Shown here: positions 1,950 through 60,030 of the stretch, one piece after another
How positions within the stretch are numbered: the stretch's first letter is position 1
Layout of the letters: the number at the start of each line of letters is the position of its first letter
NCBI GenBank assembly: GCA_036630325.1
Contig: CP142726.1
Span: 744,001 to 808,000, forward strand
DNA: 64,000 nucleotides
DNA from: Vairimorpha necatrix
Lineage: Eukaryota
Direction of reading: 5' to 3'
The notes under the pieces: generated by a model
What the model saw: only the letters and a program-made list of their open reading frames with translations
What the model was told of the DNA's origin: nothing
Databases searched by the model: none
Made by a program: the position numbers and the translations under genes

Positions 1950-4900
1950 AGTTTCTTTGAAAGTATAATCCGCTTATTATTTATGTTCTTTTTCAATAGG
2001 ATGGTGATACAAATTTTTAATCACCCCACTTGAAGTTCATCTTGAGTCTGATTTCTTTTACGTTTGCAATAACTTGTTTTGTAACGTTAAAAAAACCCTT
2101 TGCCGTTTTGACATTCTTTTATATGACATATTTTGTGGCGAGCAGCCTATTCCGCGGTAAAATGAGTTAAGATATCTATCCAAAGTCTTACCTATGCATT
2201 TTTCCTTGTCTATCCTTCCAAAATTTAATACTTTTTTTAGCTTCTCTACGTAAGTCCGATTAAATCTCTCTACTTATCCCGTAGTCGTCGGAATTTAAAG
2301 TGCTCCTAGTCTTCATTCGATTTTGTAGTTCCTAGATAACTCTTTTATAAATTAATTTACGAATGATATTTCATTATTCGAAATTTTGATCTTTGGTACC
2401 CCGTTTTTATGATGGTTTCTTCTTATCCTCTAAGCATTTCGCCGGCATCTTTTGCTCATAACAATATTATGTTCGATACCTTTGAAAAGTGATCAATTAT
2501 CGTTAATATATATTTATATTCCTGTTGGCTTTAGGGTAGTGGGCTTACTATTTCGATCTCCCATATTTGTTTGGTTTATCTGAATTTATCGAAATAAAGC
2601 TGTTTTTTATATAGTAAGATCTTATTTGTTGACATTATAGACACTTTTTTTATGTTTGCGCGTCCCCATTTAAATTTTTTATTTTGTTTCTCGTAAAACG
2701 TACATCGTTACTTTCTTTAATCCGCGAGCTAAACGACATGCAATTTGACTAAATTTTGTCACGTGTTTATATTCCTTTACGTTATTAATTGTTTCCCCAT
2801 CATTATACTCTAGCAATCACTTGGGTTACTACTCATTTAATATGCTCGATTGCTATATCATATTCCTTTAAATACAATGCCATCTTGCAAACTTTGTTTT
2901 TATGTTCGTATTATTTTACAGGTGCTTTATTGCACTATGAGATGTTTTAAGTAATTTTTTCCCTATTAGATAATGTCTATAAAGGTCGGTTGTATTAATC
3001 TCCGCAAGTAACTCTTTCTCGGTTGTCGAATAGTTTTTTTCTGCCTTTGAATGAACTTTCGAATAATAACATATGATTCTTTATTTTCCTCCCCGTGTCT
3101 TTGAGAATATTGCACCTGATCCAAGGTCTATAGCATCGGTCGTTATAATAAATCTTATATTAAATTTGACATTGCAAGTATTTGGTGTTAAACTATGTTT
3201 TCTTTTAACAGTTCGATAGCTTTTATGTATTTATTTTTGATGATTTATTTCTTCCAGTCGACGTCTACGTTCTTTTTTTATAAGCCCATATAAGCATGCC
3301 GTCTTCTTTGATTCATTTTTTATAGGTTTACTACAATAGTTAATTGTACCCAAAAAAGATTCTAACTCTTTTCTGTTTCGATGGATTTTAAGGTCTTGAA
3401 TAGTTTTTATTTTTTCCGGATCAATCTTTACTCCACTATATGGCCTAATATGTGAATTTGTCTTTTTTCATATTCGCATTTTTTTCGTTAAGCTTCAATC
3501 TTGCCAGGCCAATTAGTTCCAACACCTTCCTGGCATGTTCCTTGCATTTTCATAACGATTTGCTGTATATAATAAAATCGTTTATATAAGCCATAGCAAA
3601 TTTTTCAAATATGGCTTCGATATTCTGTTCATCATGCTCTGGAATGTTGCCGGTGCGTTTACAAGACCAAACGGCATGTATAAGAATTCGTAGAGTTCGC
3701 CTCCGCATGCAAAAGCAGTCTTTCAATATCTTTTTAATTCATTTTGATTTAGTGGTTTCCGGAGAGTGCATCCAGTTTAGTTGATAAGGCCGCTCATGTG
3801 GAAAATCCAATATTTCATCTACCCGGGGCATCGGATATAAATCTTTGATGTTATTTTTATTGAGTTTTTTGTAATCAACACATAGTCTAAAGTCATCATT
3901 TTTTTCTTTGCATATCTACTGGGCTTCGCCACGAGCTATTTGATTCCCTTATAATACCCCCTTCTAAATACTTTTGGGCAATCTTTTTTGCTTTCTTTTC
4001 TACTTCAAATTCTAGTCTGTAACAAGCACTTATTATTGGTGGGTGATCTTTTTGCAAAATTTTATGTTCTCAAAGCTTATTCTTTTCCGTATTCTCTTCT
4101 GTCTATTCGATAATCTGTATCAAATAAATTTAACGTTAAGTTTTCGAAGAAAATTTAGTCCTATGATCATATTAGAAGTTATGTCATTCTTTACCACAAA
4201 GTTCCTTCATAAACTTTCTCTCCAATCATAAACATTGTTTTATCACTCCTAAAGTCTTGATTTTTGTACTATTGGCCGATATGAGGCCTTTTGTCGATTC
4301 TAATACCTTATTCACTACTAATTTCCATTGATTGAATTTAACATGCTCCAGAATCGACTAATGCTTGTACTATAATATCTCCGATTTTTATTAAAACTGT
4401 AAGGTCTTTATTACTCGTATCTCCGAGAGATCGAACACAATTACAAAAATCAGAAGTTTTATTTTCGTCAATTTCATCATTCTTTTCCGAATCATTTCCG
4501 ATTTTCTACTATTTCGTTATTCACGGTCTTTTTTAAAATGTCTCTTTCTACCGCAGTACCAACGTTCCTTACTATTTTGCACTTAACAGACCTCCATCGA
4601 ATCCTTTTCAAACTTTTGAGGTAGCGTCCTATGTGTTCTTGATCTACTGCTGCAATCCAATCTCTTGCATGCATTATAAATATAGCCGAAATAACTTCTG
4701 TAGGTGTATCATTAGTAGTATACCCCAATATCGCCAGCTAGTCTATTCAAAACGAATGCAATCAGCACATTATCTGAGAGTCCATCTTTAATTGCAAGCC
4801 TTTCCATTTGGTCAGGATCTAGTAAATATGAACCTTCTGAGTAGAGACATCTTGCCAAATTTTTTATGTGTCCGACGCTACTCAACATTCCTTTAAATCT

Positions 4901-5220
4901 TCTTAAAAAACGCTTCACATAGCGCTATAAAGCCGCAGTTCCATGGCACTGATTCTGCTCAAATTGTTGAATTCCCTGCTAAATGATCTCTAAAGAAAAA
5001 TACCTTTCTTTCTTCACCACAATTTGCTATCGTTGCCCATCCCCTTACGTTTGCCAAGAAAGCATCGTGACCATCATCTCTGCTATTTCTAAAAGTTTTT
5101 TTTGTTTGCTGTTGTCGCCAAATTGTTATTAGAAAACATAGGTTCATTTATTTAATCAATTTATAGTAAATATCAAATAATATTGATATATCATTGATTG
5201 ACATTTATACTTTCAACAAT
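1950..5220 (-). mobile_element. Degenerate Ty3/Gypsy LTR retrotransposon (gag-pol relic)
   Basis: The minus strand reads [27 protein letters not shown] (~3640-3720), AYINDF (YxDD relic, ~3580), and RNase H ITTDA..G.GAILS and NYSTTEKELLA (~3000-3150). PBS-like TGGCGACAAC at 5120-5111 follows ..AACA. Many stops and frameshifts; boundaries approximate. Confidence 0.9.
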
Positions 5221-7834: not shown

Positions 7835-8766
7835 TTTTCTTCTTGTTGAATACCCTCAATCGTTTTATCCTTTCTTTATTACGAAAAAATAATAGTGTCA
7901 GAGCACGAGATGATCAACAGGAAAAAAACGAAATCTTTTTAATTTTTTCTTCTAGGCTAATATGATAGAGAAACAAGATTAGACATTTAATATTAGTCAA
8001 ATATTATAATTGTTTTATTGTGTAAAATGTTTTCTACAAGATTTATAAGAGATAAATCTAGAAATATGCAAAAATAACTTGTAAAACACGTTTTTATAAT
8101 AAAAAACCGAAAAACTTCATGTGCTTAAAAAACGATAATAATGTTGGCGACACGTCATTATAGCTTTGCAAAAATTAAAATATCTTAGAGGAGAGGCTGT
8201 TTGTGTGCTCTGCAAGATAGTAGCATCTTTCTTGATATAAATAAAAAATGCTCATACTGCAATAAAATAAAAGGCAGTTGATCACATGTCAAAACAGTGC
8301 TAAAGAATGTTGATTTATGATTATTTGAGAAGGCATGGCGTATTTTAAACTTATGCACATTCAAATTTGTTGCAACTATGGACTGAGAGGACCTAAACAT
8401 AACTGACCACTAGATGCAAATATGCATTGTCATTAAAGATAAAATGGACCGCAAAATATAGACCGCAAAAGGGTAAGTATAATAAGCTTGAGATATAGAT
8501 ATATGACAAAATAAAAAAGGAAATTTTCATAGCAAGTTTGATGTTACAGGATTTGACTGTAAAAGAACAATAAAAAAGAACATAATTATAAAAGCAATTT
8601 CTAGTCGATTCATACAACTTCTATGTGCACAATAAGTTAAGGAAATTACATATTGCTCACGTGAGACAATGTAGTCAATATATATCACTACTGATGCTTA
8701 GAGACGAACATAAGCTAATGACTAAATTTAGACAGAGGCACTTAAGAACGTGCTTTAATAAGTCTC

Positions 8767-9466
8767 GGGGCACCAAAAATCTCTATCTTCTACGATGCAG
8801 TTATAACAACTCATGTGATGAAAATGTGCACACTAATTATCAAGTTAGAGTCAAAAAACTTTTGCTGCTTCCTGAAATAAAGGGATTGAGCATCTAGTGT
8901 AAAAACAACCTTCGGGGACGTTAAAATATGGCCCTTATGAGAGCTAATTACACGTAAATTATTGCTGGTTATATCTCTAATGGTGCCTGAGCTAATGTAA
9001 TCTTGAGATCCTAGATTACTTTGAGAGACTAGACGAAATATAGTAATAAACCCCTAGTACCCTTTGTTCTACGGGATTATTTAACGCGTGGCCTATACTA
9101 GTGGTTAATAGCAATTAAAGTAGTATAAAAATGTTGTTCTGAGATTATGTTGTGTTAAGGAGCCTTTTATGCGACGCGGATGACAGTAAATCTTGTATCT
9201 AAGGTGACATTCCTCCCCTCGAGTATTATTACTATCTCTTTTATTTACCCACTGTGAGGTCACTCTGGACGAGATAAAATTATAAATGGAAAATTATTTT
9301 GTTGGAATTAAAATCTAATGTGTAAGGCTAAACTTTCTGCATCAGAAAGTATAATGTAGAAGGATTAGGCGCGTATGAATCTTAAAACATCAGTTGGATA
9401 AGGATTAAATCGATATCGTCCCGGTCCTTATGTATAGTTTTTCCCGGCCTCTTACTGAAAAAAAAA
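8767..9466 (+). mobile_element. SINE-like retroposon, divergent subfamily copy
   Basis: Colinear with 10343-11131: GGGCACCAAAA, GATGCAGTT..CAACTC, TGATGAAAATGT, AGCATCTAGTGTA, GAGACTAGACGAA, CTGTGAGGTCACTCTGGACG, CAGTTGGAT, then GCCTCTTACT plus poly(A). Confidence 0.8.
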
Positions 9467-9725
9467 CGGAAATGTTGGACAAAGAATCAAAATAAGAAAG
9501 ATTTAGAAAAATTTTGCAAATTTTTAGTACGAAAATTTTCGGTATCATAAACTTTTGAATATTCATATATGTATTTAATTAAAATTTTATTTTCTTAGAA
9601 TTATATTTGTGTAAACAATCAATCAGGCCTGTTGTATCGCCTTTTCTTTACTATATATTGATTTATTCAGCTTAAAAATTTAATTTTCAAAATTTTAAAT
9701 ATTGAAGTTCATAACAATTTAAGGA

Positions 9726-9877
9726 GGTGCCCTTAGCCCATTGCTCAATGGATGCTCTTATTGAGCAATGGCTAGGGACAAATCCCAGGGACATAAAATT
9801 GTTTCTACTTTCTATGATGCAGTTGGAACAACTTAGACGATGAAAATGTCCCTGATAATCAATAAGTTGATTCAATG
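9726..9877 (+). mobile_element. SINE-like retroposon, 5' part (tRNA-like head) of a copy split by a Merlin element
   Basis: Matches 10343-10497. The upstream flank ATAACAATTT (9711-9720) is duplicated after the poly(A) at 13103-13112. Confidence 0.85.
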
Positions 9878-10342
9878 GGCGCAACGGCCTGAGCCCGGAC
9901 CTTTTTTTCTCTCTAAGGGGGAGGGGCCCTTAGAGAGAAATTACTAAAAAAAGAGCATTTTATTCAAGAAAACTTTGATAATTTTAATGAAAAACTCTCT
10001 TTAACTCTTATATTTTTATATATATGGCGCGCCTTCTTCTCTATTTAAATTTCTCCAAAAAATCTGGGATCGCACTTTCTTTGATCCCTTTTCTAGCTAT
10101 TATATCACATTAAAGATGTGACCAGACTCCCTCTATTGAATTTGTGGCCTTCCCTAATTCGTTTTAAAAGCCGTCATCGTAAACTAAACGCGATGATTAG
10201 AGTTGATGGATTCTACTGCTGCTGCTGGGTAGGATTTGTGCCTATTAGTTATGCAAATAGTTTCGTTTTTATGTATTTTTTGAAAAACTAAGTCATCGTT
10301 TGGATAGTTCGCTAAGGCGCAATCTCGATTCTCAATTCTAAC

Positions 10343-11131
10343 AATGCCCTTAGCACAGTGGTAGAATGCAATGCTCCCTTGAGCAATGGCTGGGTTCGAT
10401 TCCCAAGGGCACCAAAATTGTTTCTACTTTCTATGATGCAGTTGGAACAACTCAGATGATGAAAATGTCCACGATAATCATTAAGTTGATTCAATGAAAC
10501 TTGTGTGTGTCCAGCCACAAGGGGATTAGCATCTAGTGTAGAAACGCACCTCAAGGCCAAAAAACAGTATCACTCTTTGGTGACTTAATGATACATAAAA
10601 GTATCTAATGGATACGGCCTAGTTGGAGCTCATGGCTGGTGCACTCTAGAGTGGGTTTCTAGAACTTACTAAGAGACTAGACGAAGTAGGGCAATAGAAG
10701 GTCTCGTGGACCCTATCCTACATGATTCTGTAACACGGTGGCCGAAACTAGTGGGAGACTGGTGGTCAACGCAGCTTAATAAAATCGCCGGGCTGGGTAT
10801 GTGGTCGTGTAAGGAGCCGTGTATGCAATACGGATGATTGTAAGACCTTTGAGTCAGTACGATGATGTCTCTCCTCGGGTTATAGATAACCATGCCCGTT
10901 AAGTATATCCGCTGTGAGGTCACTCTGGACGCGATTTGAGGTATAAATGATAAGTGTTCTCCTGGAGCCAAAGTCCAATGGATACGTCGGAGCTTGCTGC
11001 ACCGGTAAGTTGCATGGAGGGAGTTTTAGTGAGTAAGAATCTCACAGTACCAGTTGGATGAGGATCCCACCCAAATCCCTCTGGTCCCTATGTAAGGTTT
11101 CTCCCTGCCTCTTACTTGCAAGAAAAAAAAA
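10343..11131 (+). mobile_element. Full-length SINE-like retroposon with tRNA-like head and poly(A) tail (789 bp)
   Basis: Head with A-box-like TAGCACAGTGG, B-box GGTTCGATTCC and TGCCCT..AGGGCACCA. No convincing coding frame. A-tail at 11123-11131 and perfect 11-bp TSD TCAATTCTAAC (10332-10342, 11132-11142). Confidence 0.9.
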
Positions 11132-11539
11132 TCAATTCTAACGTTCGCTCGTCTATTGTACCAACCATGTGCTGTTTTTGACTGTGCCATATCTTTCCAA
11201 TGGTATATTGACCAATTTTCCTTTTACTATAACCTTTTCATTAGTCTGTGTCACTTCTTCAAACCCTCCTATTATTTAAGAGCTTAATGTATTCCTTTTC
11301 CAGTGCTTCGTATATTTTTTTGGCTCCGAAGACACTGGAAGTATTCACACGGGAATTTTTGTTTAAGTTTAGTGTAGACTGGTTTTTAGTGAATGAATAC
11401 AGAATATATAAATAATTATGTATAGGTATTTTAGGACTAGAAAATGAAGTTTTATCAAAAACTCCCATTGATGTTCCACATCCTATCTTTTCCCTACACT
11501 TAACCCGGTGGCAGTCTATGTACAAATCATTCAGAGTTA

Positions 11540-12105
11540 AAAATTATATAATTTATTTGGGTATAATTTTCGGCTTATTAATTACTTTTCACAAGATACG
11601 CTTACAGTCTCATCTGGCAGTTCCAGGACTTCCTTCTGAGATTCACTCATTGGGCTCTCGAAGAACCTTCCAGATCTGTATCAAGCCCATGTCTGGCTGA
11701 TATAGTTAGGCTTTCTAAAGTGATTTTAAGGACTTTTGACTGTATATATGCTTCCGTTCTGGGTTCTAATTTGAGCACTTTGATATGCGTGCGGTGAAAA
11801 TTAGTTACTATTCCATCCCACGTCATCACATAAGGAATAATTTTCGGCTTGTATTTGTAGAGAGAAGCCACATGATTTGCGAGCAAGTCGTATTTATGTT
11901 TCTTTTCTGTTTCTACTGCATGGAGGTTGTTAAAACTTGTGATTCCAACTTCTACAACGATCACTTCTTTCCTCAACTTGTCTACAATTAGTATATCAGG
12001 CTTGTTATACTTTATTTTAATACTTTAATGTATCCTACTGTCGACTCGTATCTCAACATACTCATTAGCTACACATTCCTGGACTGAATGATTTCTAATT
12101 CTTTT
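11540..12105 (-). mobile_element. 5'-truncated non-LTR retrotransposon, restriction-like endonuclease (RLE) domain
   Basis: RNHSVQE..EIRVD, KPDIL, VEVGIT..EKKHKYDLLA, IPYVMTWDG; frameshifted; homologous to 30912-31535. Confidence 0.88.
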
Positions 12106-12461
12106 GGCATAAGATATCCGGAGTTAATACCATTATTTCAAAAGAATTCGTACATCCTATGGCTTTTTTAGTGATTTCATCCACTAGCCAGCATATTGCC
12201 TCATGTGGTCTTGGATAATTTTTGACCTACTATCAAGAGGCTCTAGACATACCATAAGGGTAAAATTTTTTTGAAAAAATCATCTAAAAAACAAATAAGT
12301 TTATAGCTCAAGAAATGTTAATTCGAATGAAATTTAAACAAATCTGTAAAATTTTGACTCCTGGGGATATAGTTCGTAAAAAAACATCTTCACACTTTAC
12401 GGTCTGTGACCGGATTCAGTAAGTAAAAAATAGCGAAAGTCTGGGCTCGGGCAGTTGCACC

Positions 12462-13102
12462 ATTCATTAGAACTTATGTGTATTTAGCTACAGGTGGATT
12501 AAAATCTAGTGTAGAAACGCACCTCAAGGCCGAAACAGTATCAACCTTGTCGCGACTTAATGATGCATAAAAGTATCTAATTGGTACGGCCTAGTTGGTG
12601 CCTATGGCTGGTGCACCTTAAAGCGGGATCCTAGAGCTAACTAAGAGACTGGATTAGTAGGGAATAAGAAGGTCTTGTGGACCCTATCCTACAGGATTCT
12701 GGATCATGGTGGCTAAAACTAGCGGGAGACTTGTGGTTAACGCAGCCCAATAAAAAATGTTGGTCTGGTGATGTGGCCGCGCAAGGAGCCGTGTGTGCGA
12801 TACAGATGATTTTAGGAACCTTTAAGTTAGTACTATGATGTCTATCCTCGGGTTATAGAAAACCATGCCCGTTAAGTATATTCGCCGTGAGGTCCCTCTG
12901 GGCGATTTGAGGTATAAATGAAAAGTGTTCTCCTGATGCCAAAGTCCAATGGATACATCGGAGCTTGCTGCGCCAACAAGTTGTATGAAAATAGTTTAAG
13001 TAAGTAAGAATCCCACAGTACCAGTTGGATATAGATCACTTCCAAATCCCTCAGGTCTCTATGTAGGGGTGCTCCCTACCTCTTACTTGCTTAAGAAAAA
13101 AA
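12462..13102 (+). mobile_element. SINE-like retroposon, 3' part of the split copy
   Basis: Resumes where 9726-9877 stops, is colinear with 10490-11131, and ends CCTCTTACTTGC plus poly(A) and TSD. Confidence 0.9.
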
Positions 13103-14565
13103 ATAACAATTTGTAGGAGAGAAGAATGCATAAAAATGATAAAAATCACTTAAAAAGGAGTATTATTAGCAGCATTATGTATAAAATTTATTTAATGGAT
13201 TATTTATTATAACTACATATAATTTCTAATTTATACTTAGCTCCCCCTCTCCAATAAAAATATTTGAATTGATATTTTTTTGCCTGTTTAAAAAGTTTAA
13301 ATCGTCCTGGAAGGAAAGTAGCAAACAAAAAATTACATGTTACAAAAGTTGTCTTATTAAAATCATATTTGATTATAATTTGTGCAAAAGATCATTTTAA
13401 ACTCTTTTTAATGAGCGGTGTTTTTATGTTTGTTTAATCGATGTCTAAATTTGTAAAAATTTTAAAAATGTTATTATTTTAATACTATAATCAATTTTTA
13501 AATCAGAAAAACATATTTTAAAGCAGTTTTTGTTGTTATTAACAGATTCTAGGTTTGGTTATTATTATTTTCTAATATTTAATATAGTTTATTTCTTTTT
13601 AGTATTTCATTGATTTTTAAAGTTTAACTATGTTGTAATATGTAATATTTATGCTCTTTTAGGCATTTTAAACATATTTGACATTAATATAAAGATACAC
13701 ATTTTTGTTTCTCCCAAAAGAAAAATATCGTATATTTATACATATGTAAATTTCAATAAAATATGCTCCATAACATAATTTTTTTTTACGTAGAGATTGA
13801 TCAAGATTTATCTTAATGGTACACCCCAATGTATAATAAAGATAAGCCTTGCACAAAAAAGTGAAAAATATTAAAAAAAGTGAAAAAATGTTTATTTTGG
13901 AGATTGAGCCATATTATTATAACTTTATTTTTTGCTTTTGACTTTCCATTTTTCGCTACAACTTTCAAAAAACAGGGCTAAAAATAAAAAATCCTAATTT
14001 TATACTAGTAAGAGGAGGAAATTAAAGCGGAGATTCAACTATCTTATTTAACAATTATAATTTAATTTATTATCGTAGCCGATAAGTTAAGCTTATGACG
14101 CAGTATAATTAAATTCCGAATCAATTTATAAATATTTAATTAATTTTCAACGAGGAAGCCGTTTAAAATTAGTAAAAAATTCTCTTACTGTGGTACCCTC
14201 TGGTGAGGGAGCCAAAACGAAAATATTGCCCCAACAGGGTGCGAATGTAAGTTTGTTTTTTTACTAATTTATTAATGTTTGGGATCATCTTTGTGGTTCC
14301 CATATTAGTTGTATTTTTATAGTGATAATTTCTGTTCCTGTCCATTATGTCGTCTCTTCTTTGAATATTTTTTATTTTTAAAAAATAATTTCTAGAAAAT
14401 TCATTTTTGTTAAATATTGAGATAAAATAAAAATAGAACAAATGTAAAAATTATGTGATAGGATACCACACTTACAAGGAATAAGAATTAGTTTTGTGAT
14501 TTGATCATTTATTAAAAAGAAATTAAAATTATTTGATTTTTTAAATAAAAAAATATTACCTCTAA

Positions 14566-15186
14566 ATGGTTTTAGTTAACTTATTTTTTATCTTCAATCT
14601 ACAAAAAATAACAGCTAGCGATAAAAACAATGCAGACATGCCAACAAAAGAAACAAATGAAAGAATAGGATCATATGGAGACATTGCCAATAAAAAGGTT
14701 TATATCTGGGTTGATCTTGACAGTAATCAGAAAGCATCTATATTTGCAGAGGCAATATTTAACAGTTTGGTAGCAAAAATGACATCTCCAATAGTGGTGC
14801 ATTATGAAAAGTCAAAGGGGTTTAAAGATAAATCGTATGAAATTTATAGGCAAGATATGGATTTGGGTCTATATAAAAAAATACTTAGTAAAGCTAGTTA
14901 TTCTAAAAATTTCAATGGAAAAGAAAAAGTAATTCACGATTTAGTGTTTTCTCTTGCAAATCATACATCGGAATTACAAAAAGACTTAATATCGTGGGTT
15001 CAAATTTGCAACGATCTTGATCTCGACGTGATAAAATTGTCTATAAGACAATATGCTGATATAAAGTTTACCGATAAAAATAATATATGTTTCGAGCAAG
15101 TTTTCAAACATAAAGACTTCGAACTGATTAATGCCAATATCAGAAAAATTTATGAATTAATAATATTAAATATAAGAAAATACTAG
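14566..15186 (+). CDS. Signal-peptide family protein (member 2)
   Basis: 206-aa ORF: MVLVNLFFIFNLQKITAS, YEIYRQDMDL.LY, GKEK..L..SLA, IKF....FEQVF. Confidence 0.85.
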   Translation: MVLVNLFFIFNLQKITASDKNNADMPTKETNERIGSYGDIANKKVYIWVDLDSNQKASIFAEAIFNSLVAKMTSPIVVHYEKSKGFKDKSYEIYRQDMDLGLYKKILSKASYSKNFNGKEKVIHDLVFSLANHTSELQKDLISWVQICNDLDLDVIKLSIRQYADIKFTDKNNICFEQVFKHKDFELINANIRKIYELIILNIRKY

Positions 15187-17600: not shown

Positions 17601-19924
17601 TTGTGTTATTTTCATAGCCATTCCATTATTTTAAGTTAAATACTTCAAATTACATCTTTATAATGCGATTGCTAATTGTGAATGCAATAAGGTGATTAAT
17701 ATGTATCGAAAAGCCAATAAATAAAAATTGCTCTTTGGGCTAAATGATCGGACGTGTAAAAAATGTTAATAATCAAAATAAACAGCAAAGGAGGGTCTAA
17801 AAATAGTATATGATCAGCCGAATGTACATGTCAAAAATTTTAAGTGATTTCGATGGGGGGAATAAAATAATAAAGAACGTGCATTGCCCATGAAAAGGTG
17901 CGAAAAGTCTTATTTGACTCATTTTGTATAGTTTTTTCTAACATCATGTATATATTTGCTTTATTAGTTTCTTTTATCATTTAAAAGTTCAATTTGTTCT
18001 ATTAGGTTTCAGAAAAAACTTTGTTTAAACATAATAAATGTTAAAAAACTTCAGAGAAGATTTAGAACTACATATACTGAGTTATATTCTAAAATTGTTT
18101 ATTCAGTACAGAAAATTTTTTATTAAAAAGTCGAATTAGCTGTTGAGATAATGTATGAAGGAAAAAAAAAATTTATAATAAATTTTGTGTTTAACAATTA
18201 CATTTTCTCTTTTGCATACTAAAACTGTTCAGTGATTTTTTTTTCCGTCTGCCCATCTTTTTATATTTCTTTAAGCAAATTATTTTAATGCCTCTATGGG
18301 GTCGTTTGCCCCTCTTCATCTATAAGTATTTCTAAAATCTCATCGAATAAATGAGCTGAAAATTATAACTAAAATAAAATTTGAAATAACAATCATATAG
18401 ACATTAATATTGTATTTTGTGGCCTATTCATTAAAAAAATTGAATAATATATCTATGAAAGATGGTAAAGCAACTATAAACTAATTTTTGCATGGGTCTG
18501 TGTTTTTTACATTCTCCGTTCATTTTGAAGAGTTTCTTTCGATTCATCGGGTTTAATATTAAAATCTATTGCAATGTTACAATCTCGATGATCTTCCACC
18601 GTCAGAATTTATGGTGACATTAAGATTTTTTGATTGAATGTAAGCTGCAATTCGCCTGCATCTTTTAGATAATTTTTACAACAATATGAAATCTTAGATC
18701 ATTATGTGTTTATAGTAATAAAAAAAGCCCCAATAGAATAATTTAAAAACAGTGATAATTTTGATTTACTTTTTTTTCTAATGTAAACTTGTTTAGTATC
18801 TTAGTCATTAAAATTATTTTCAACTTTTTATACAGCGATTGAAAATTTGATTTTATTACAAAGAGGCTTTTTTATTATATGATTGTAAAATTGAACATTA
18901 TATAATATAAAAATCAATATTGTGTATAATTTTGCATATACAATGAATAAAATAGTCCGCATATTTACAAAAACAAAAATCTTACAGGTAATAAATTTGA
19001 TCGCGTGGTTTTTAATATGATGACATCAATTCGATCAATTTTTATGTTCATAATTTATAAAATAATACAAAAAAAAAATCTAATTTGTGACATAATTAAA
19101 GTTCGAATAACATCATTGTATCTACATAAGGAACCAAATCATATTATATGTTACTAAAAAATTATTTTTTTATGATTGCAACATCAAAATAAAATTATAT
19201 ATTAGATGTAAAATTTTTATATATATATATATATATCAATCTTTTATATTATAAAAAAGTTCGCATTAGATTTCCGCCTTCTATTTCGTGTTTTGAAATC
19301 TCCAAACTATTAATTTTGCACTTTAATGTTATTATAGAATCAAATATAGATATAATGTAGCAATATGACTATGATGATTGTTATACTATATTTTAATGAA
19401 TATTTTTCATAATATTTTTGTAATACCCAGTCTTAATATATTTTAGAATTGTTTTATAAAGTTTATTGAATTCTTCTACGAAAAATTTACCAAGACATAT
19501 TACCATAAAAAATGAAACATACACGAATATAAATGTTGAAAATATAATTAAAAATACTTAAAAACAATTTCTTAACTCTATAATTGTTTTTTAAATCATT
19601 TACTATTTTAAGTAAATAAAAAGTATTTTTTGTTGTTTAAAATCATACAATCTCTTTTCGAATTTATTCTTCTAATAATGGAAATTATAAAAGATGAAGG
19701 AGGTGCATATATTTACACGATATATAAATATCGTTTTAAAGATGGATAAGCATACACTAGTTACAATATCTAACTAAAACAAAATCAATGGAGATATAGC
19801 ATGGAACAAAGTGTAATATTTGATTTTTTCATATATAAAACCGATGATATATTTATAGCAACAAAAATTATTTTTACTGTTTTTGTAATTCCTTTTTTTA
19901 TAAAAAAAATTAAGCTCCTTTAAT

Positions 19925-20622
19925 ATGTTTTTAGCTCTCATTATATTTATTTTAAAGATGCAAAAACTAACAGCTAGTAATGAAAACAATGCAGACATAT
20001 CAACAGTTGAAATAAATAAAGAATCCAAATTATGCGAGGAAATTGATTCAAAAAAGGAATTCAACATCTTTGATATTATAGTCGCCAAGATAAAACTATA
20101 CTTGCAAAGACAATATTTGATAGTTTGCTAGAACATATGAGGTTTCCTATGTTCAGTCAACGTAATTGGCCGGGTGTAAATTTTGGAATTTTTTATCAAA
20201 TTTCAAGAAGAGATATGGATTTTGATCTCTATTTCAAAATACTCAATAAAATGCCACATGAGGTTAGTTTCGTGAGAAAAAGAGGTTCAATATCTTATTT
20301 AATAAAATCTCTTGCTGATTTTACAAGAGGATTATATGAAGACTTATTGTCAAGATTTTATAATTGTGAAGAACTTAATCTTGAAGCGATTAAACTATCT
20401 TTAGTACAATATGCCAATATTAAATTTAACCATGTATATGAATACATTTTTGAGCAGGTATTCGATCATAAAAATCCTGAACTGATTAATCGTGAATTTA
20501 GAAAGATTTATAAAAAAAATAAGAGACTATGCAATGAGGTTCCAGGATTATTCGGTCGATCAATTATGAGGCGCAATTATTTCGAAAGATCTCATCTGAT
20601 TCAGAATTCTTCAAATCTTTAG
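19925..20622 (+). pseudogene. Signal-peptide family member 3, frameshifted near 20090
   Basis: N-terminal ORF MFLALIIFILKMQKLTAS. A second frame carries LAKTIFDSLLEHMRFPMFSQRNWP..YQISRRDMDFDLY..FEQVF. Confidence 0.8.
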
Positions 20623-23969: not shown

Positions 23970-24210
23970 TAAAGAGCTCCGATTAGAATCCAGAACGGAA
24001 GCATATTTTTAGACAAGAGTCCTTTTAATGACTTTAGAAAGCCTTACTATGTCAATTAGACATGGGCTTGATACTGAACAGAAAGGAGTATTCGAAGACC
24101 CACTATGTGGATTATAGGAGAAACTCCGGAACTGTCAAAAGAAATTGTGACTATAGCTTTTGAAAGTTATCAGTAATATATTTTATTATACCAAAAAAAT
24201 AATTTATAGT
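23970..24210 (+). mobile_element. 3' fragment of RLE non-LTR retrotransposon
   Basis: ELRLESRTEAY..TLESLTMSIRHGLDT matches the C-terminus of 11647-11976. Confidence 0.8.
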
Positions 24211-30914: not shown

Positions 30915-31570
30915 CGTGGACACTCAGTACAAGAGATCATGGAAAATGATCGTGCAGAAATAAGAGTAGATACGAGAATATCCACTAATATAAAGGTAAC
31001 CCATAATAAGCCTGATATTCTTGTGTTTGACAAGAAGAAGAAAGAAATTTTAATAGTTGAAGTTGGTATAACCAACCAGGATCGACTTACTATAGTTGAG
31101 AATGAAAAACTAAGAAAATATGACCTTCTTGCAAATGAACTGGGACTAATACATAAATCCCGGACAAGAATAGTTCCTTATGTAATGACATGGGATGGAG
31201 TGGTGACCAAATATCACAGAAAGTACATCAAGGAGCTAGAAATCCAACCCTACCTGGAAGCATATATCCAGTCTATTGTGATGAAGAAGACTCTAGAGTC
31301 CATCTCTTTGGAACGACGACGAGGATACGATCAGGAGGATGCAGGAGAAGAAGAAGTGGCTAGAGCTGTAAGCGCACTAGCGAATATGGCGACTGTTAAA
31401 GAAGTGGTGTCGGCAAAGGGGAATGAAGCTGCTAAAGTGAAGTTGGAAAACATTAATAATTCCACAGAAACCAAAGTCTGTGAAGAGCTGAATCCCATGA
31501 GCGATACCGGGGAAAGCTGTGCTATGAATATCTAAACATAATTGAAAATTAACTCAATAAATCTTTTATT
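30912..31570 (+). mobile_element. 5'-truncated RLE non-LTR retrotransposon (R4/Dong-like) inserted in a (TA)n tract
   Basis: Open frame HSVQE..KPDILVFDKKKKEILIVEVGIT..EKLRKYDLLA, stop at 31535, AATAAA at 31556; (TA)n at 30883-30911 and 31571-31593. Confidence 0.92.
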
Positions 31571-37448: not shown

Positions 37449-38195
37449 TTTTTTGCAAGTAGGAGCTAGGAACCCCCTTACATAAAAACCAATAAGAGTT
37501 GGGTGTGATCGTCATCCAACTGGTACTTTGAGATGTTTACTCACTAAAACCCCCTTCATACAACTTGCCGGTGGAGCAAGCTCCGCCGTATTTATTGGAC
37601 TTTGACACCAGCAACTCTTTTCATTTATACCTCAAATCGCAGTAGAATGACCTCACGGCGGATATACTTAACGGGCATGGCTATCTACAACCCGAGGAGA
37701 GACATCGCCGTACTATTTCAAAGGTCTCTCAATCATCTCTATCGCACACACGGCTTTTTACACGACCACATCACCAGCCCGGCATTTTATTTTTCTGCAT
37801 TAATCATTAGTCTCCCACTAGTTTCGGCCACCGTGTTACAGAATCTTGTAGGATAGGGTCTACGAGATCTTCTATAGTTTTACTATGTCTAGTCTCTTAG
37901 TAGGATCCAGGGCTCCACTCTGGTGTGCTCCAACTAATCCGTACCCATCAGGTACTTTTATGTATCATTAAGTCACCACAAAAGTGATACTGTTTCTAAC
38001 CCTTAAATTGCGTCAATACATTAGCTTTATATCCTTGTGACTGGACACACAAGTTTCATTGAATCAACTTAATGATTATGGACATTTTCATCATCTGAGT
38101 TGTTCCAACTGCATCATAGAAAGTAGAAACAATTTTGGTGCAGGAAACACATCCATTGCTCAATAGAATCGTCTTCGTATTGGGCTAAGGACTCC
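37449..38195 (-). mobile_element. SINE-like retroposon copy
   Basis: The reverse complement is colinear with 10343-11131 over its length; T-run at 37449; head degenerate. Confidence 0.88.
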
Positions 38196-45108: not shown

Positions 45109-45770
45109 CTTTTTTTCATGTGAGTAAGAGGTAGAGAAAACTCTAGCCATTGGCCATAAAGAAATGCAAACTTTATTTTTTAAATGACTGATATTGTGAG
45201 ATTTTATTTCACTAAAACTCCTACAATTAAACCAGGAGGCGCAGTAAGCTCTGCCATGTCCTTTAGACAACTACTCTGTATAACAACGTTACTATGAATA
45301 TTATATCACGTCTAGAAAAATCTACAGCACGAAAAATTACCTAACTCGGTTTAAATCTTATAAAGATATCTAAAAAAACATTAAGACCTTTATTTTGTAC
45401 CGCAAAAGCCCCCTAGGACACCAAGACTGCTTTTTATGGGCGGAGAGAGCACTTTTTTCATGAATATTGTGTAGCCTGTTAAATAACACTGTAAAATAGG
45501 CCCACGCGGCCCTTTTTGATCTACTTCGTCTAGTCTCTTAATTAACACAAAACGTGCACAAAAATAGGCAGCTGCATGCTGTTCCAGAGAAATCTTCAAA
45601 TATCAATAATTTACCATAAGCGTAATATTATTTCACCTTGAAAGTGCGTTTCTACACTATCAATAATCTTCCTATGGTTGGCGCACACGGGTTCATGATA
45701 TTAACACAATGATTTTTGTATACATTTTCATCATCTAAAATTTTCCAACAACAATAAAAACTAATTTTTT
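45109..45770 (-). mobile_element. SINE-like retroposon, strongly divergent subfamily copy
   Basis: Retains in order AGATGATGAAAATGT, TAGTGTAGAAACGCAC, TAAGAGACTAGACGAAGTA, GAGTTTTAGTGA..AATCTCACA, then CCTCTTACT plus A-tail. Spacers are divergent and the head is unclear. Confidence 0.8.
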
Positions 45771-47157
45771 TAGATCCCCCAATGGTTTAACTAAGAAACA
45801 GCCACTGGGCACGCCTAACATTTCCCGCAAATTTATTATTAATTTAAAAGGGTTTTTTAACTTTAAACATAAGTTACATAAATAAAGGTCATGTGAAAAG
45901 TGTGGTTAGACTTAAAGCTGGCTTGAAATTGAAGAAGATGTATACGTGTATCGAAATTCATTTTATTAGTCATAAGGCAAGTTAATTGATAAAATAATTT
46001 ATAGAAAAAAAATCCGCCATCGATCTGAACAATTTCGAAGAAGATGTTGACGAATAAACTATAAAATAAATGGTCTATAATATACAGAATACTATGTTAG
46101 TTTCTTCATCATATTTATCTTAGAAATGCAGTTTTAAATCATAGACCTGGTAAATACATTTAACAAAATGCCTATTATTCTATGGTATTGGTATGTACTT
46201 ATGTATTTGAATCTCAAAAATTTAACGATTGTTGACCATGTAATGTTTTTTCAAGAGGTTAATTTTAAAGGGAAATTTCAACTATTGATGTTGATGATAA
46301 TCTTTTTGTTTTGATTCTTTTGCGTGTTCTGAGGATGTTAAGGGCTCTATGGGGGTTAAATATACCATATGTTGAATTGCAATTTCAACTATGCAAAAGC
46401 TCAAAATTATTTTACTGGCTTCCCCTATTATTTTTGCAATCTTTGTTTAAACGATAATTTTACTTTATATGTTTATTGCAGATAAATATCTATAATAAAC
46501 GTTAATTTGAACAGATACATCAAAATTTTTGATTTAAAACATCCAAAAGTTAAATAACAGATATTTGTTATAACTTAAAACCACATATCTTGTATTTGTT
46601 CACTAAAAGATGATTAATGAAAATTTAAAAAAAAAAGTTTTTACAAAAAAAACAATTTCTGCTAAAAAATCTTCTTATAAACAATTAGCCCTACAATAGC
46701 GCTTTTGTTTATAATTACATTATTGGCTTTTTAACTGCAAACATTTCTAGATTTTTGTGTTTTGAAATTATAAGCTAAAATGTGAAATTTATATATTAAA
46801 AAATTACAGCGTAAACTCGTCTTTAGTATTTTATCCCCGTTAAAGCTCTTTTTATAGTAATTCATCGTTTAATATATGATTGATTAATTGGAAATACAAT
46901 AAAGTAACTAACTAAAAACTAAAAAAAACTAAAGTTTTTCAATGGCGCAATTCTTTGATTATTACACTTTTTTTTTACTTTAACTATATCTGTCAAACTT
47001 CTCATTGATTATAATGTCGGTAAAAGTGATATCATATAGAATTTTTTTATTACAGAAGATAAAAAATCATAGTAGCATTTTCATCGACATAAAATATATT
47101 GCGCTTGCGTGTTAAATTTCAAAATTATCTATATATCTTCGTTTTTTTTAATCCCAT

Positions 47158-48540
47158 ATGAATGAAAATGAAGATATATTAGAATGGGTAAAATTTATAA
47201 ATATACCCGATTATACAATATTTAAAAAAAGAACTCCACATCTCAATAGATACACAAGTAAAAACACAAAAAATCTTAATAAGTGGTATATAAGAATTGT
47301 CAAGAACGATAATCCTCTTATAGGATATAAATATTGGATTAATGTAAATGGATATCTAGACAATAATACCTTCATTCGAAGCTCGCCCATTTATAATATA
47401 TATGGTCCTTTAGAAGTACTTACTGCCCACACTAAGTATAATTTAGCTGAAGATAGTGAAGTATTAAGCATTTCTCCGCATATTAAGTTTGAAAAAAGTA
47501 AATTAAGAAAGTTTAGCAAGGGATTTCCTAATGACTGGAAGGAGTTGGTCACAAAACAGCTTACAAAGATATTTGGGCAAGGTATAAAAGCGAATATGTT
47601 AGATTGTGAGAAAAAGTTAACTTCATTTGAAAAAATATATAATGATATATTTGACAATCAAGAAGCAGAAAATGTAGATGCAGAATGGGAAGAGTTACAA
47701 GTCCCTTGTCTTAAATTGAAAGATGACGATATACTTCAAGAAGATAGTCTCGAAGACAATGGCCTGATAGAGCAAGACTATATAGAAGAAAATCATGATA
47801 CATTAGAAACTGAAGAGCAATTAAAAAACAATACAAAAAAAATCAAGAGTAAAATATCATTGAGACGTCAAGCCACGCTTAAACTATCAAAAGATGAAGT
47901 TAGCGAAGACATAGAAATAATGTCCTTCTATTTAGCTTCTAAGAAACCACAAAATGAAAACAGTAAATGTATGAGAACAAACATGAAAGAGCCGATAATT
48001 AATATAGACAAGTCATTTATTCTGACACATGAGGAAAATATGTCATTAGATACTGAAAACGAGAATAACAATGATAATATTCTCAAGACAAAAAAGCTAA
48101 ACAAAAATGAAGAACCGGGATTTCATACAAATATAAAAGATGAACACGCCATAACGACAAAATTCGAAGAAAAACCAAGAGATAGAGCAAGTTTAAAAGA
48201 TAGTGAAAACCAAAAAATAGATATCAATGAAATAGACGAATCGGGACAATCCTTCGAAAGCGTTACGGATACCTACAATAGTTCAAAATGCAACACAAAT
48301 ATAGAACTTAACATCAATGAGAACATCGAAGGCGATTCTGAATATACCATAGACAGTAGTTACAACACTATGGATATACTTTCTTCGGGTGTAACACCAG
48401 ATGATATAAAAGATAAAGATTATTTACAGGACTCCAAATTAATCGAGAGCATTCTAGGTTTAGGGAAAATGATGGAACTTATATCATTTGATCATGTATA
48501 CTCAGGTAAAGTAAAGAAAAGAAAGAGAAAAGAAAACTAG
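47158..48540 (+). CDS. SANTA-domain (KNL2/M18BP1-like) protein paralog, 3' end decayed (possible pseudogene)
   Basis: LNKWYI..INVNG..RSSPI..LTA..Y.L..FSKGFPNDWK. Similarity to 57660-59318 continues past the stop in broken frames (YEEVSNK, ~48660). Confidence 0.7.
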   Translation: MNENEDILEWVKFINIPDYTIFKKRTPHLNRYTSKNTKNLNKWYIRIVKNDNPLIGYKYWINVNGYLDNNTFIRSSPIYNIYGPLEVLTAHTKYNLAEDSEVLSISPHIKFEKSKLRKFSKGFPNDWKELVTKQLTKIFGQGIKANMLDCEKKLTSFEKIYNDIFDNQEAENVDAEWEELQVPCLKLKDDDILQEDSLEDNGLIEQDYIEENHDTLETEEQLKNNTKKIKSKISLRRQATLKLSKDEVSEDIEIMSFYLASKKPQNENSKCMRTNMKEPIINIDKSFILTHEENMSLDTENENNNDNILKTKKLNKNEEPGFHTNIKDEHAITTKFEEKPRDRASLKDSENQKIDINEIDESGQSFESVTDTYNSSKCNTNIELNINENIEGDSEYTIDSSYNTMDILSSGVTPDDIKDKDYLQDSKLIESILGLGKMMELISFDHVYSGKVKKRKRKEN

Positions 48541-49825
48541 ACATAAAAAGATCATGTAAGCTTAAAAAATTTAAGAATGCAAGTATGAAAAGTAAAGAGA
48601 GCACTATTGACACTTGTTACAGAATAACATGAAAAAAGAATAGACTTGTCAAACTAAATTATATGAAGAAGTAAGCAATAAAAAGGAAAGCACATATAAA
48701 CTCAGTATAGGAAACTCAAAAATTTCGAAAACTAAATAATGAACAAAGCGAAACAAAAAAAAAAGAAAAATTCAATACGTCATAAATACATACATAAATA
48801 AGAGGTCTCTAATGAATATAACAAATAAAAGAACTATGAAGAACATAAAATAAATACGTAGCTAAATATCTTAAATAAATAAACTGAAATAAAAGTAATA
48901 AACAAAGAACTAAGGAGGATGATTATTTTATTAAAGAAATTATACAAGCAACTGCAATAATCTAAAATGAAAAAAAATAAACCTAATATTTTCATATAAA
49001 AAAAATTATGTTTTTCAATACGTGCATGTCTCCCGCATATACTTGAGATCGACATCACTGCTGCTAGATAAAATCTTAGATAAAAAAGAGAGGAAAAAAA
49101 TGCACATATAAAGACGGGGCAACCCCCGAAAATATTAAAATAAATTTAATTAAGAAAAATATTATTCAGTAAATATAAAACTCTATATGCATCATAGTAT
49201 ATTACCATACAATAAATAAAAAAAGGATACCTTTAGTCGTAAATATAGGCTCGAAAATTTCATATTAAATAATCATTGATGTCGAAGATAGTTTACAAAT
49301 ATTGGGTTAAGAGATAAAAAACAGAAATTTCGACAAGACCAAAGAATCCTATATTTGAGACTTGTTAAAACTTTGCTATAATACCAATTTGTTCATATTA
49401 GGCTTTAAGAATTGTAAAAATGTTTTGTATGACTAGGCATAGAAACTTTTTGTCTACATAAAACTCGCCTCAACGACAGGAAAAATGTAAAAAAAAGCGA
49501 TTTGTGTGCGTAAAATTGCATATGAGTTATAAAAAAGATTTTATTGAAACTCTTCAGGTAAGATTGGCGAGCTATCATAAGATACTGATAATTTAATACT
49601 TAAGGTTGCATGAACACAGCCTTAATATTCTGTAACAAACTTGAATTTAACTTTTAAGAATTACGTTCATAGTTTAACAGTGCAATGAGGAATGATTTTT
49701 CACCGATTTCAAAATATTTTAGCGAAAATTGGACCATAATAGGGCCATATGTGTAAAAACAAAATTGTTATCATGTTATGCAATCTGATCGATAATTATA
49801 TATTGCAAGAATTTTTTGGAAAAAA

Positions 49826-51055
49826 GATACTATTAGCCCACGCATTTGAGGCGCTACGATTTTTTTTTCGAACCCCAAAAAGAAGTGCAAAAAAGGAGGA
49901 GAAAATAGGGAACAAAAAATACTGACCACTTTCGATAGTTAAAATCTTTAATAAAAACATAAAACGCCTTTAATTAAATTTTTATACCAAGATATATCCT
50001 TTTTTTGTGTTTAAATATATGATTTACATTTTAACAATTTATACAAATTTCAAAAATTTTTAATAAATAAATCCCTTAAAAATGATCAAGAAGTACAAAT
50101 GCATCGAAGGAATCATGAATGCATTGATAGAAATTAAATAACCACTATTTTTGTCCACTTTGCATTGGTAATTTAAAAAGATGCAAAAAAAAACTTAAAA
50201 TAAACTCATTTTTCAACAGGAACATGTAGGAAAAGTATTATTATTACAAACAAAAAGCCTTTTTTCAACGCAAGATTACCATGGTTAAAAATATGTCAGG
50301 TGATTTTTTGTTTATTGATATTACTTCTTTAAAAAATATATTATCTATAAGTAGAAAACCAATTAATGCAATTATTAGTGATGTTAGCAAGAATGTTACC
50401 GGTAATAAGAAGATTGGAGGACCTGGTATCATTGTAGAGATTGACGAATCTAAATTTGGGGAAAGGAAATACAATAAAGGACACAAAGTTGAATGTGTCT
50501 GGGTACTTGGAATGGTCGAAAGTACAAAAGAAAGGGTATAGTCTTACTTAATGTAAAAAATAGGAAAGCTGAAACTTTTGAAGGTTGTATCAAAGAGTAC
50601 GTACTTTCTGGCTCCATAATCTATACAGAATATTGGAAAGGATTCTCAAATCTATCAAAAATAGGAATATATGACCACTATGCGGTAAATCGTTCATTCG
50701 GGTTTGTAAATCCAATTTATGGAGTCCATACAAATACGATCGAAGGAACTTGGTCTGCAGTAAAAAGAGTAATACCGATAAAAAACCGAACAAAAATGAT
50801 ATAAATTGCATTTTAAACATTTTTGCATTCAAAAATTTAATTCATATAACCCCGTACAATCTTATTAAACAAAAGTTTTAACTAAAAAACTTGGTAAAAA
50901 AAAAATTTAAGGTGTTTTATGTTATTATTAAGAATTTTAACTATCGAAAGTGGTCAGTATTTTTTGTCCCCTATTTTCTCTTCTTTTTTTGCACTTCATT
51001 TTCGGGGTTCGAAAAAAAAATCGTAGTGCCTTAAATACGTGGGCTGATAGTTATC
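49826..51055 (+). mobile_element. Merlin (ISXO2-like DDE) transposon with ~160-bp TIRs and frameshifted transposase
   Basis: KIGGPGIIVEIDESKFGERKYNKG..WVLGMVE, IYTEYWKG, HYAVN..FVNP..HTNTIEGTW; 49826-49990 is inverted at 50890-51055. Confidence 0.95.
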
Positions 51056-51212
51056 TTTAGCCTCATTGAGTATTTTGACATCAACGTAAAATGTGAAAAT
51101 TTTGTTTGAAATTGTTATGTGTGTATATTTATATCATGTAAATTTTTTTTTTCAGATTTTGACATTTATTCGTACTTTTTTTTAATATAACTTGAAATTT
51201 TTTTTTAATTTT

Positions 51213-53916: not shown

Positions 53917-54666
53917 TTTTATTTTCTTTGTAAGTAAAGGGTAGGTAGAAATCTTCATAAGGGATTTGGAGGTGATCCTTATCCAACTAATACTGTGAGA
54001 TTCTTACTCACTAAAACTCACTATGTATAACTTGCCTGTGAAACAAACTCCGCCGTATAATTGCACTTTGGCTCTGGGAGAACTTTCCCGTTTGTACCTC
54101 AAATAGTGTCTAGAGCGACCTCATGACGGATTTATCAACGTCCATGGTTTTCTATAACCTGAGGAGAGACATCATCGTACTAACTCAAGGTCCCACAATC
54201 ATCTGTTCACACACACGACTCCTTACACGTCCATATTACCGGCCACATTTTATTGACCTGCGTTGACCACGAGCCTCACTAGTTTGACCTACATGTTACA
54301 TAATCCTGTATGATTTGATATAAAAGGTTTTTAAATACCGTATTTCATTTAGTCTCTTAGTTAGTTCTAGAATGCACCAGCCATGAGTCCAACTTATCTG
54401 TACTCAGCAGATATTTTTATGTATCATTAAGTCAATACGAGAGATACTGTTTTTTCGGTCTATATGTAGATTTCTTCGCTAGGCCAATTCCCATATTACT
54501 TAACCATAAAGGCTTTATTAATCAACTTAATGATTTTCGTGGAGATTTTCATCATCTGAGTCGTTCCAACGGCATCATTGAAGGTAGAAAGCCTTTAGTC
54601 CGCCTGGGATTCGAACCTAATCATGATCGATAGAAGCTCTGCCTTCGATCATGAACTAAGAGCATC
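53917..54666 (-). mobile_element. SINE-like retroposon copy
   Basis: The reverse complement is colinear with 10343-11131; head has B-box GGTTCGAATCC (54617-54607). Confidence 0.85.
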
Positions 54667-59749: not shown

Positions 59750-60030
59750 ATAATTGATTTGTATAATATCTTACTTACTAACCACTTTTCACAATATTTT
59801 CTAATAGAACTTCTGAAATCCACATTTTGGGCTCTCGAGTGCCCCCTTTAATCAAACCCATATCATATTGACATTGTTAGGCCTTCTAAAGTCATTTTAT
59901 GGATTCTTGCTTCTATTCTAATCAGAGTTCTTTGATATACGCGTGGTGGAAATTAGTTACAATTTCATCCCATGTCATTACATAAGGAATAATTTTGTAT
60001 TTGTAGAGAGAAACCACATGATTTGCAAAA
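59750..60030 (-). mobile_element. 3' fragment of RLE non-LTR retrotransposon
   Basis: 59966-60026 is near-identical to 11814-11880; degraded. Confidence 0.8.

Follow-up and report, generated by a model that had tools for sequence, protein, structure and literature searches.

What kind of repeat is the GC-rich sequence of ~790 nt at positions 10343-11131, which opens with a tRNA-like head and closes with an A run? It lies in a window of 64,000 nt, by which we mean the whole stretch of DNA analysed here, and the initial annotation had read it as one copy of a tRNA-derived SINE family. We put the probability at about 0.7 that this is a non-autonomous non-LTR retroposon family of the tRNA-derived SINE type, hosted by a Vairimorpha-clade microsporidian. 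The earlier interpretation thus appears right in kind, but intact heads and target-site duplications (TSDs) are fewer than it implied and the window holds no partner element.

Copies of the element in an AT-rich window

The window is AT-rich (28.1% GC), and its genes are intron-less and eukaryotic, with Pfam families that identify a septin, Der1, SPT5, a TAF5-like WD40 protein, an E2 enzyme and an Rpb7-like protein. Because the septin ORF is closest to NCER_101327 of Vairimorpha ceranae (69% identity), followed among named matches by Nosema granulosis (54%), Ordospora (51%) and Encephalitozoon (48%), the host belongs to the Vairimorpha clade of microsporidia; the initial annotation had likewise taken it for a microsporidian, with which the intron-less genes and the septin agree. 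For V. necatrix, a passage of PMC10759460 gives 28.3% GC, 12 chromosomes, ~15 Mb and 50% repeats, values that agree with such a host; the paper also states that germinated V. necatrix spores had their total RNA sequenced. Among 28 window ORFs, Pfam recovered the host genes together with one RVT_1 and one RT_RNaseH fragment, which lie in the sole reverse transcriptase remnant of the window:

about 2058-5147, - strand: degenerate LTR-type (gypsy-type) element with a stop-riddled RT/RNase H (the RVT_1 and RT_RNaseH fragments)
1733-1840 and 5108-5215: direct repeats flanking the degenerate gypsy-type element, unrelated in sequence to the SINE-like family

To collect copies of the family, the window was searched by BLASTN with 10343-11131 and by nhmmer with a profile made from the copies. 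Both searches returned six full-length colinear copies of 706-789 nt each, whose start points agree with the six near-complete copies claimed initially:

10343-11131, + strand: reference copy, 789 nt, GC 45.4% (BLASTN and nhmmer)
9726-9877, + strand: 5′ part of a split copy; the whole copy has 83.4% identity to the reference copy and GC 43.0%
12462-13103, + strand: 3′ part of the split copy, ending in A8 at 13096-13103
37449-38194, - strand: copy with 82.6% identity to the reference copy, GC 41.6%, a decayed head and an A6 tail
53917-54665, - strand: copy with 76.3% identity to the reference copy, GC 38.7%, an intact B box and a degenerate A-rich tail
8737-9466, + strand: old copy with 63.5% identity to the reference copy, GC 35.9%, head partly deleted, ending in A9
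45114-45819, - strand: oldest copy, with 57.2% identity to the reference copy, GC 35.8% and an A7 tail

The nhmmer matches at E<=1 numbered seven, all within the six copies, and total 4,492 nt, or 7.0% of the window; no 5′-truncated copy was found among them. The fragments mentioned in the initial annotation come down to a single 32-nt BLAST match at 61054-61085, 30/32 identical to one well-conserved block. In the identity matrix each of the other five copies is nearest to the reference copy, a star-like pattern that would be expected of successive copies of a master sequence, with the reference copy the least decayed. As had been noted, the copies are GC-richer than their surroundings (35.8-45.4% vs 28.1%), and their GC content drops with divergence, from 45.4 through 43.0, 41.6, 38.7 and 35.9 to 35.8%, towards the 28% of the genome.

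The abundance claimed for the family is seen both in its 7% share of the window and in public sequencing runs, two of which, X1 and X2, hold hundreds of contig pieces of it. Three runs (X1, X2 and X3) contain parts of the stretch 8600-13200, in shares of 0.25, 0.22 and 0.07. The contig pieces that aligned to it at a likeness of at least 80% numbered 484, 678 and 30, respectively, and were concentrated on 10294-11217. Sorted into four bins of likeness from above 99% down to below 90%, they fell into groups of 74, 79, 129 and 202 in X1 and of 105, 179, 188 and 206 in X2, and single positions were covered by up to 19 (X1) and up to 30 (X2) different contigs. For 28 records of X2 the alignment breaks off at 11131, where they pass into loose ends; the consensus of these opens with about 15 A, and unlike flanks follow. 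The runs thus hold a high-copy, diverged, A-tailed family, for which summed contig depth is not equivalent to copy number. The organism of the window, or a near-identical strain, is present in X2, because a 352-nt contig of that run is identical to 12910-13200, a segment that takes in unique flank. Elsewhere, a pattern scan with the 3′ block gave zero matches in metagenome, genome and viral contig collections; seven metagenome loci returned by a two-block gapped pattern were set aside as chance, none being BLASTN-similar to the element at E<=1e-3.

The gap in the split copy is filled by a second mobile element:

9878-12461, unstranded: TIR DNA transposon inside the split copy, 2.58 kb, with imperfect TIRs of ~26 nt, carrying the reference copy

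The TIRs of the transposon align at 24 of 29 positions, and its TSD of ~8 bp reads attcaatg on one side and attcatta on the other. The split copy, at 83% identity, is therefore interrupted by a transposon that itself bears the reference copy with its perfect TSD, and from this nested order of split copy, transposon and reference copy it follows that the family inserted repeatedly, both before and after the arrival of the transposon. Some contigs of X1 and X2 join the transposon across the reference copy (10178 to 11132, and others), their joints being inexact and their weight as evidence low.

The element has no coding capacity. No sense-strand ORF is common to the copies, no credible Pfam family was found in the antisense ORFs, and a protein search with the 118-aa antisense ORF returned no homologue. 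At 62% identity as protein vs 81% as DNA, the longest antisense ORFs of two copies indicate that the sequence is free of coding constraint, in line with the initial statement that the copies have no conserved ORF.

Head, tail and target-site duplications

tRNA-related sequence forms the exact 5′ end of the reference copy, and the features at its two ends, with the TSDs of the family, are as follows:

10344-10413, + strand: tRNA-like head of the reference copy, with acceptor, D, shortened anticodon and T arms, followed by ccaaaa
10351-10361, + strand: A box of the reference copy, tagcacagtgg
10393-10403, + strand: B box of the reference copy, ggttcgattcc
11123-11131, + strand: A9 tail of the reference copy (sequence)
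10332-10342 and 11132-11142, unstranded: exact 11-bp TSD of the reference copy, tcaattctaac (score 11, p 0.021)
9711-9726 and 13103-13119, unstranded: 16-17-bp TSD of the split copy, abutting its head, with 1 mismatch and 1 indel (score 12, p 0.0075)
flanks of the copy at 8737-9466: possible degenerate 15-bp TSD (score 8, p 0.21)

The head of the reference copy matched the Rfam tRNA model (RF00005) over model positions 1-71 of 71 with 29.1 bits, at the gathering score of 29 (E 0.004 in a 4.6-kb search). The Pol III A and B boxes that the initial annotation had assigned to this copy are present as sequence motifs, read against what we take to be the consensus motifs, and the acceptor-like stem that it described is formed by tgccctt and aagggca, followed by cca. 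This cca could be a vestige of CCA addition; in the register of the Rfam model, its first c takes the place of the discriminator base. A working tRNA would need a longer anticodon arm, and ARAGORN called no tRNA in the window, this head included, so that the count of tRNA genes in the window is zero. A whole-window Rfam search at gathering thresholds listed nothing, and on the reference copy Rfam found nothing apart from tRNA. A U6 match on the conserved block of the copy at 37449 (12.6 bits, E 0.93) was dismissed as chance, the reference copy giving none.

The description of the whole family as tRNA-headed holds for the reference copy, which reaches the Rfam model, but this is one of the six heads; the other five, including those of the copies at 37449, 53917 and 45114, fell below the model. 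The B box is intact in two of the six copies and reads ggttcgaatcc in the copy at 53917, a form that was also seen in a loose end common to X1 and X2. Every segment of the reference head was found again in one or more of the other copies: three copies have ccttagc, or a version with one base changed, as the 5′ acceptor strand, and ttgagcaatgg and gcaccaaaa are in two copies each; a loose end common to X1 and X2 carries a further head variant with gggttcgag. Because each segment recurs in this way, the tRNA-related head is ancestral to the family and not an accident of a single copy.

At the other end, five of the six copies finish in A6-A9 exactly where homology stops, and the sixth, at 53917, has a degenerate A-rich end. 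Runs of A6 or longer occur at 3.4 per strand-kb in the window, so that the chance of one starting in a 12-nt window is ~0.041 and the chance of finding them at the end of five of six copies is ~7e-7. The TSDs were scored against 4000 random flank pairs 790 nt apart. Two of the six copies have clear TSDs, two have suggestive ones (p 0.10 for the copy at 45114, and the degenerate repeat listed above for that at 8737), and two have nothing (p 0.39 at 37449 and 0.90 at 53917). The clear TSDs sit in the least diverged copies, the pair with the highest mutual identity, and loss of TSDs from the others would fit decay with age, a thin argument. The A tail and exact 11-bp TSD reported for the reference copy were recovered as described; across the window copies, where the initial annotation would have counted a lack of tails and TSDs in most copies against its own reading, the A run is present in five of six but a clear TSD in only two of six.

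These ends bear on whether the family could instead be a solo LTR, a MITE/TIR transposon or a Helitron-type element, which we regard as hardly tenable. The element does begin with tg and end with ca ahead of the A run, and a degenerate LTR retrotransposon and a TIR element both occur in the window. LTRs, however, have TSDs of 4-6 bp, lack an A tail and occur in pairs around gag-pol. TSDs of 11 and 16-17 bp and a terminal A run are at odds with this, and the repeats at 1733-1840 and 5108-5215 that flank the gypsy-type element have no relation to the family. None of the five inverted pairs in 9800-12560 joins the ends of the element, contrary to a TIR or MITE, and the presence of TSDs argues against a Helitron.

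Proposed transcription and mobilisation of the family

The features expected of a SINE that we found are the absence of an ORF, an A-rich tail, TSDs and, in the youngest copy, a tRNA head with boxes. Under the SINE reading, Pol III would transcribe a GC-rich master copy by way of the A and B boxes inside the copy's own tRNA-like head, and the RNA would extend beyond the A run as far as a T run in the flanking DNA. The resulting RNA of ~790 nt, with its genome-encoded A run, would be copied in trans by the reverse transcriptase and endonuclease of a LINE and placed into new sites by target-primed reverse transcription, and the family may still be active. Such a cycle would yield a full-length copy with an A tail and an 11-17-bp TSD, the products observed here, and neutral decay would afterwards bring inserted copies closer to the AT-richness of the genome, as the trend in GC content shows.

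The sense strands of the two youngest copies contain one T4 run each and no run of T5 or longer, vs 5 and 9 runs of A4 or longer, and the first T5+ run is reached 44 nt beyond the tail of the reference copy. Read-through by Pol III to a terminator in the flank would fit this pattern; taken copy by copy, the depletion of T runs does not reach significance (P 0.13-0.18). A conserved T4 run also lies ~100 nt before the 3′ end of the element. Against the SINE reading, ~790 nt is long for a Pol III transcript and exceeds the customary 100-600 bp, and the poor conservation of the head is odd for a promoter unless master copies diversified. Among the four youngest copies the head (element positions 1-80) is the least conserved part, with a mean pairwise identity of 50-59%, and the most conserved block lies directly beside it, the remainder of the element having 52-88% identity. 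That block, and hairpins found in two of the heads, are:

10423-10502, + strand: most conserved block (element positions 81-160), 83-93% mean pairwise identity among the four youngest copies and 92-97% identity to three other copies
9738-9771: perfect head hairpin of 10-12 bp in the split copy (head fold z -3.87)
54621-54654: perfect head hairpin of 10 bp in the copy at 53917

A perfect 10-bp hairpin takes the place of the D and anticodon region in both of these copies, in the same register, after ttag plus one base and with a loop of 14 nt. Between the two stems 6/10 pairs differ, all by compensatory double changes, with none broken; on a 4-sequence alignment this compensatory count was reached by 1/500 shuffles, and slid controls gave 0-1. 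Since four sequences are involved and the structure was read from the same sequences, the apparent conservation of the hairpin is a lead, not proof. If it holds, the source genes would have diversified their heads while keeping the hairpin. A globally structured RNA body was tried and rejected (fold z -0.69 on the sense strand, where 3/20 shuffles fold as well, and -0.48 on the antisense strand).

The weak head conservation, together with the long hairpin that replaces the tRNA-like fold in two of six copies, the length of ~790 nt and the conserved internal T4 run, also suits the main rival to the SINE reading, which we judge unlikely: a SINE-like retroposon transcribed by Pol II and mobilised by a LINE, in which the head is a relic or structural module and not a promoter. 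There is precedent among fungi for long SINE-like elements independent of Pol III, because Eg-R1 of Blumeria, 700 bp in length according to a passage of PMC5063351, is described in part of PMC6022598 as Pol II-transcribed, as carrying AAUAAA and as being without A/B boxes and genomic A tails. The element analysed here differs from Eg-R1 in having boxes in its youngest copy, at canonical spacing and at the extreme 5′ end beside the TSD, and in having genome-encoded A tails, which Eg-R1 insertions are said to lack in that part of PMC6022598; by eye, moreover, no AATAAA lies near the 3′ end of the reference copy.

The initial annotation spoke of tails of RLE LINEs in this DNA. We found no LINE of any kind in the window, RLE-type LINEs included: no LINE-type reverse transcriptase was detected, a regular expression for RT motif C giving five hits with zero in RT context, and no element in the window shares its head or tail with the family. 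That annotation had named no partner reverse transcriptase, which agrees with the absence of both a LINE and a shared tail from the window. The same absence weighs against reading the family as an internally deleted, non-autonomous LINE derivative, consisting of a 5′ UTR and a 3′ UTR of which the former is tRNA-like by chance. A tails and long TSDs are hallmarks of LINEs, and in X2 the summed contig depth, which is not equivalent to copy number, climbs from 5′ to 3′ along the element from ~8,000 to ~139,000, so that its 3′ part could be common to another abundant element; the gradient is, however, absent from X1. LINE-derived copies are usually 5′-truncated, whereas all six window copies are full length, and with no RT-encoding relative and nothing sharing the tail alone in the window, we consider a LINE derivative quite improbable.

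Returning to the SINE reading and its LINE partner, an example of such a partnership is found in Entamoeba, where EhLINEs, LINEs of the R4 clade with a restriction-like endonuclease, have EhSINEs as partners. To our knowledge, EhSINEs are not tRNA-headed. The pair could serve as an analogue if the partner of the present family were a Dong/R4-type LINE. In Nosema bombycis, Dong-R4 is the only LINE subtype named in Table 2 of PMC3614468.

Relation to described elements

In length the element, at 706-789 nt per copy, lies above the customary SINE range, which a passage of PMC5063351 gives as 100-600 bp while listing fungal SINEs of 472, 500, 700, 800 and 900 bp. The label "unusually long" attached to it initially thus holds against the customary range but not against fungal SINEs of up to 900 bp in that passage. 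We would not count the excess length as excluding SINE membership, because the passage names elements of 700-900 bp as SINEs.

Two of the fungal elements characterised in the same passage, MgSINE of Magnaporthe (472 bp) and AfuSINE2 of Aspergillus fumigatus (140-493 bp, TSDs of 4-14 bp), resemble the present family in their tRNA-related 5′ head with Pol III boxes, tRNA-unrelated body, TSDs, lack of an ORF and dispersed copies. Compared by description only, the present family differs from them in its length of 706-789 nt, its TSDs of 11-17 bp and its microsporidian host; AfuSINE2 is moreover given there as "low copy number", vs 7% of the window here. Closer in size are Eg-R1 (700 bp) and EGH24 (900 bp) of powdery mildew and mgsr1 (800 bp) of rice blast (PMC5063351, same passage), with which the family shares the form of a very abundant, non-coding, non-autonomous retroposon of 700-900 nt, hosted by an obligate parasite whose genome is rich in repeats.

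For microsporidia, Table 2 of PMC3614468 (Pan et al. 2013) contains a category row for N. bombycis, "SINE 28,669 bp, 0.18%", which the text seen of that paper leaves without description, and the paper gives 14% "Unknown" repeats for the same genome. Table 2 of PMC11585130 reports zero SINEs, the methods and a figure legend of PMC13702014 name SINE as a repeat category only, and the word SINE occurs zero times in the main text of PMC4202319, PMC7313128, PMC10759460 and PMC8206274. A characterised microsporidian SINE was not found in the open literature, where automated repeat-category rows were all that appeared, and the TE consensus files of PMC4202319 and the additional files of PMC7313128 may contain one. 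The statement that the element was not recognised as described therefore stands as far as characterised SINEs in the open literature go, but the row for N. bombycis exists (PMC3614468, Table 2). Judged on that literature, the family seems not to have been characterised previously in microsporidia; its mechanism is not new, a SINE being an ordinary kind of element.

A more far-reaching combination of these points strikes us as doubtful when taken as a whole. In it, the family would be the first characterised microsporidian SINE and among the most abundant repeat families of a Vairimorpha-type genome, with on the order of a thousand copies at window density, and would thereby account for some of the large "unknown repeat" fraction. 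It would depend on a Dong/R4 LINE of the RLE type as partner; selection for RNA structure would lead its master genes to reshape the tRNA head, and the hairpin would be a functional RNA module, interacting for example with Dicer/Argonaute, a machinery that V. necatrix is reported to retain in a passage of PMC10759460.

Mid-sized microsporidian genomes consist of repeats for about half their length, 50% in V. necatrix according to the same passage-level figures of PMC10759460, and a defined SINE family of 750-790 nt, covering about 7% of a window, would allow some of the "unknown" repeats to be assigned to a known class and would remove spurious ORFs from GC-rich repeats. Its insertions would provide presence/absence markers for typing strains and haplotypes, and its existence would show that LINE machinery, and probably type-2 Pol III promoters, have been active in these reduced parasites. 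Knowledge of the family helps the annotation of microsporidian genomes rich in repeats, and the hairpin in the head deserves attention at the scale of a whole genome. As a likeness of pattern only, drawn from four to six copies in one window, the conserved block at element positions 81-160 (83-93%) beside a fast-changing head (50-59%) recalls CORE-SINEs and V-SINEs, in which a conserved central domain is combined with variable heads.

Hairpins in two SINE heads and an isolated SINE-like stretch

Two copies of the tRNA-headed SINE family, namely the split copy (9726-9877 and 12462-13103, forward strand) and the copy at 53917-54665 (reverse strand), carry hairpins within their 5′ heads, with an identical register in both.

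9738-9771, forward strand: perfect 10-bp head hairpin, split SINE copy
54621-54654, reverse strand: perfect 10-bp head hairpin, SINE copy 53917-54665

A comparison of the two stems revealed that six of the ten pairs differ, each by a compensatory double change, and these differences could have arisen from selection on SINE source genes or from a templated repair process. Separately, a lone 32-nt stretch (61054-61085) agrees at 30 of 32 positions with a well-conserved SINE-body block. This stretch precedes the TAF5-like ORF (61224-62873) by ~140 nt and could be either a relic of a deleted SINE copy or a chance match.

The interrupting TIR element and an LTR-type remnant

The split SINE copy is interrupted by an element with terminal inverted repeats (TIRs), which match at 24 of 29 aligned positions. 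Pfam identified no recognisable transposase within this element and no family for its 125-aa ORF (11647-12024, reverse strand). The element's internal segment 11587-12008 has three diverged copies elsewhere in the window.

9878-12461, unstranded: 2.58-kb element, imperfect ~26-nt TIRs, ~8-bp target duplication
23971-24165: diverged copy of 11587-12008
31003-31273: diverged copy of 11587-12008
59810-60026: diverged copy of 11587-12008

A retrotransposon remnant of the LTR type contains short ORFs matching RVT_1 (28 bits) and RT_RNaseH (44 bits), together with protease-like and integrase-like stretches judged by eye.

~2058-5147, reverse strand: stop-riddled LTR-type remnant, RVT_1 and RT_RNaseH matches
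1733-1840 and 5108-5215: flanking direct repeats, 108 nt each, 76% identical

Paralogous ORFs and other duplications

Two ORFs in inverted orientation are paralogous, with ~70% DNA identity in their 5′ parts.

47158-48540, forward strand: 460-aa ORF, weak SANTA-domain match
57660-59318, reverse strand: 552-aa ORF, weak SANTA-domain match

A diverged duplicate (14538-15156 and 19893-20514; 66% DNA identity) spans ORFs of 206 and 182 aa, neither assigned to a Pfam family, and possibly represents a lineage-specific gene family. In addition, the segments 49823-49991 and 50890-51058, which lie ~900 nt apart and share 89% identity, are the two arms of an inverted repeat of 170 nt.
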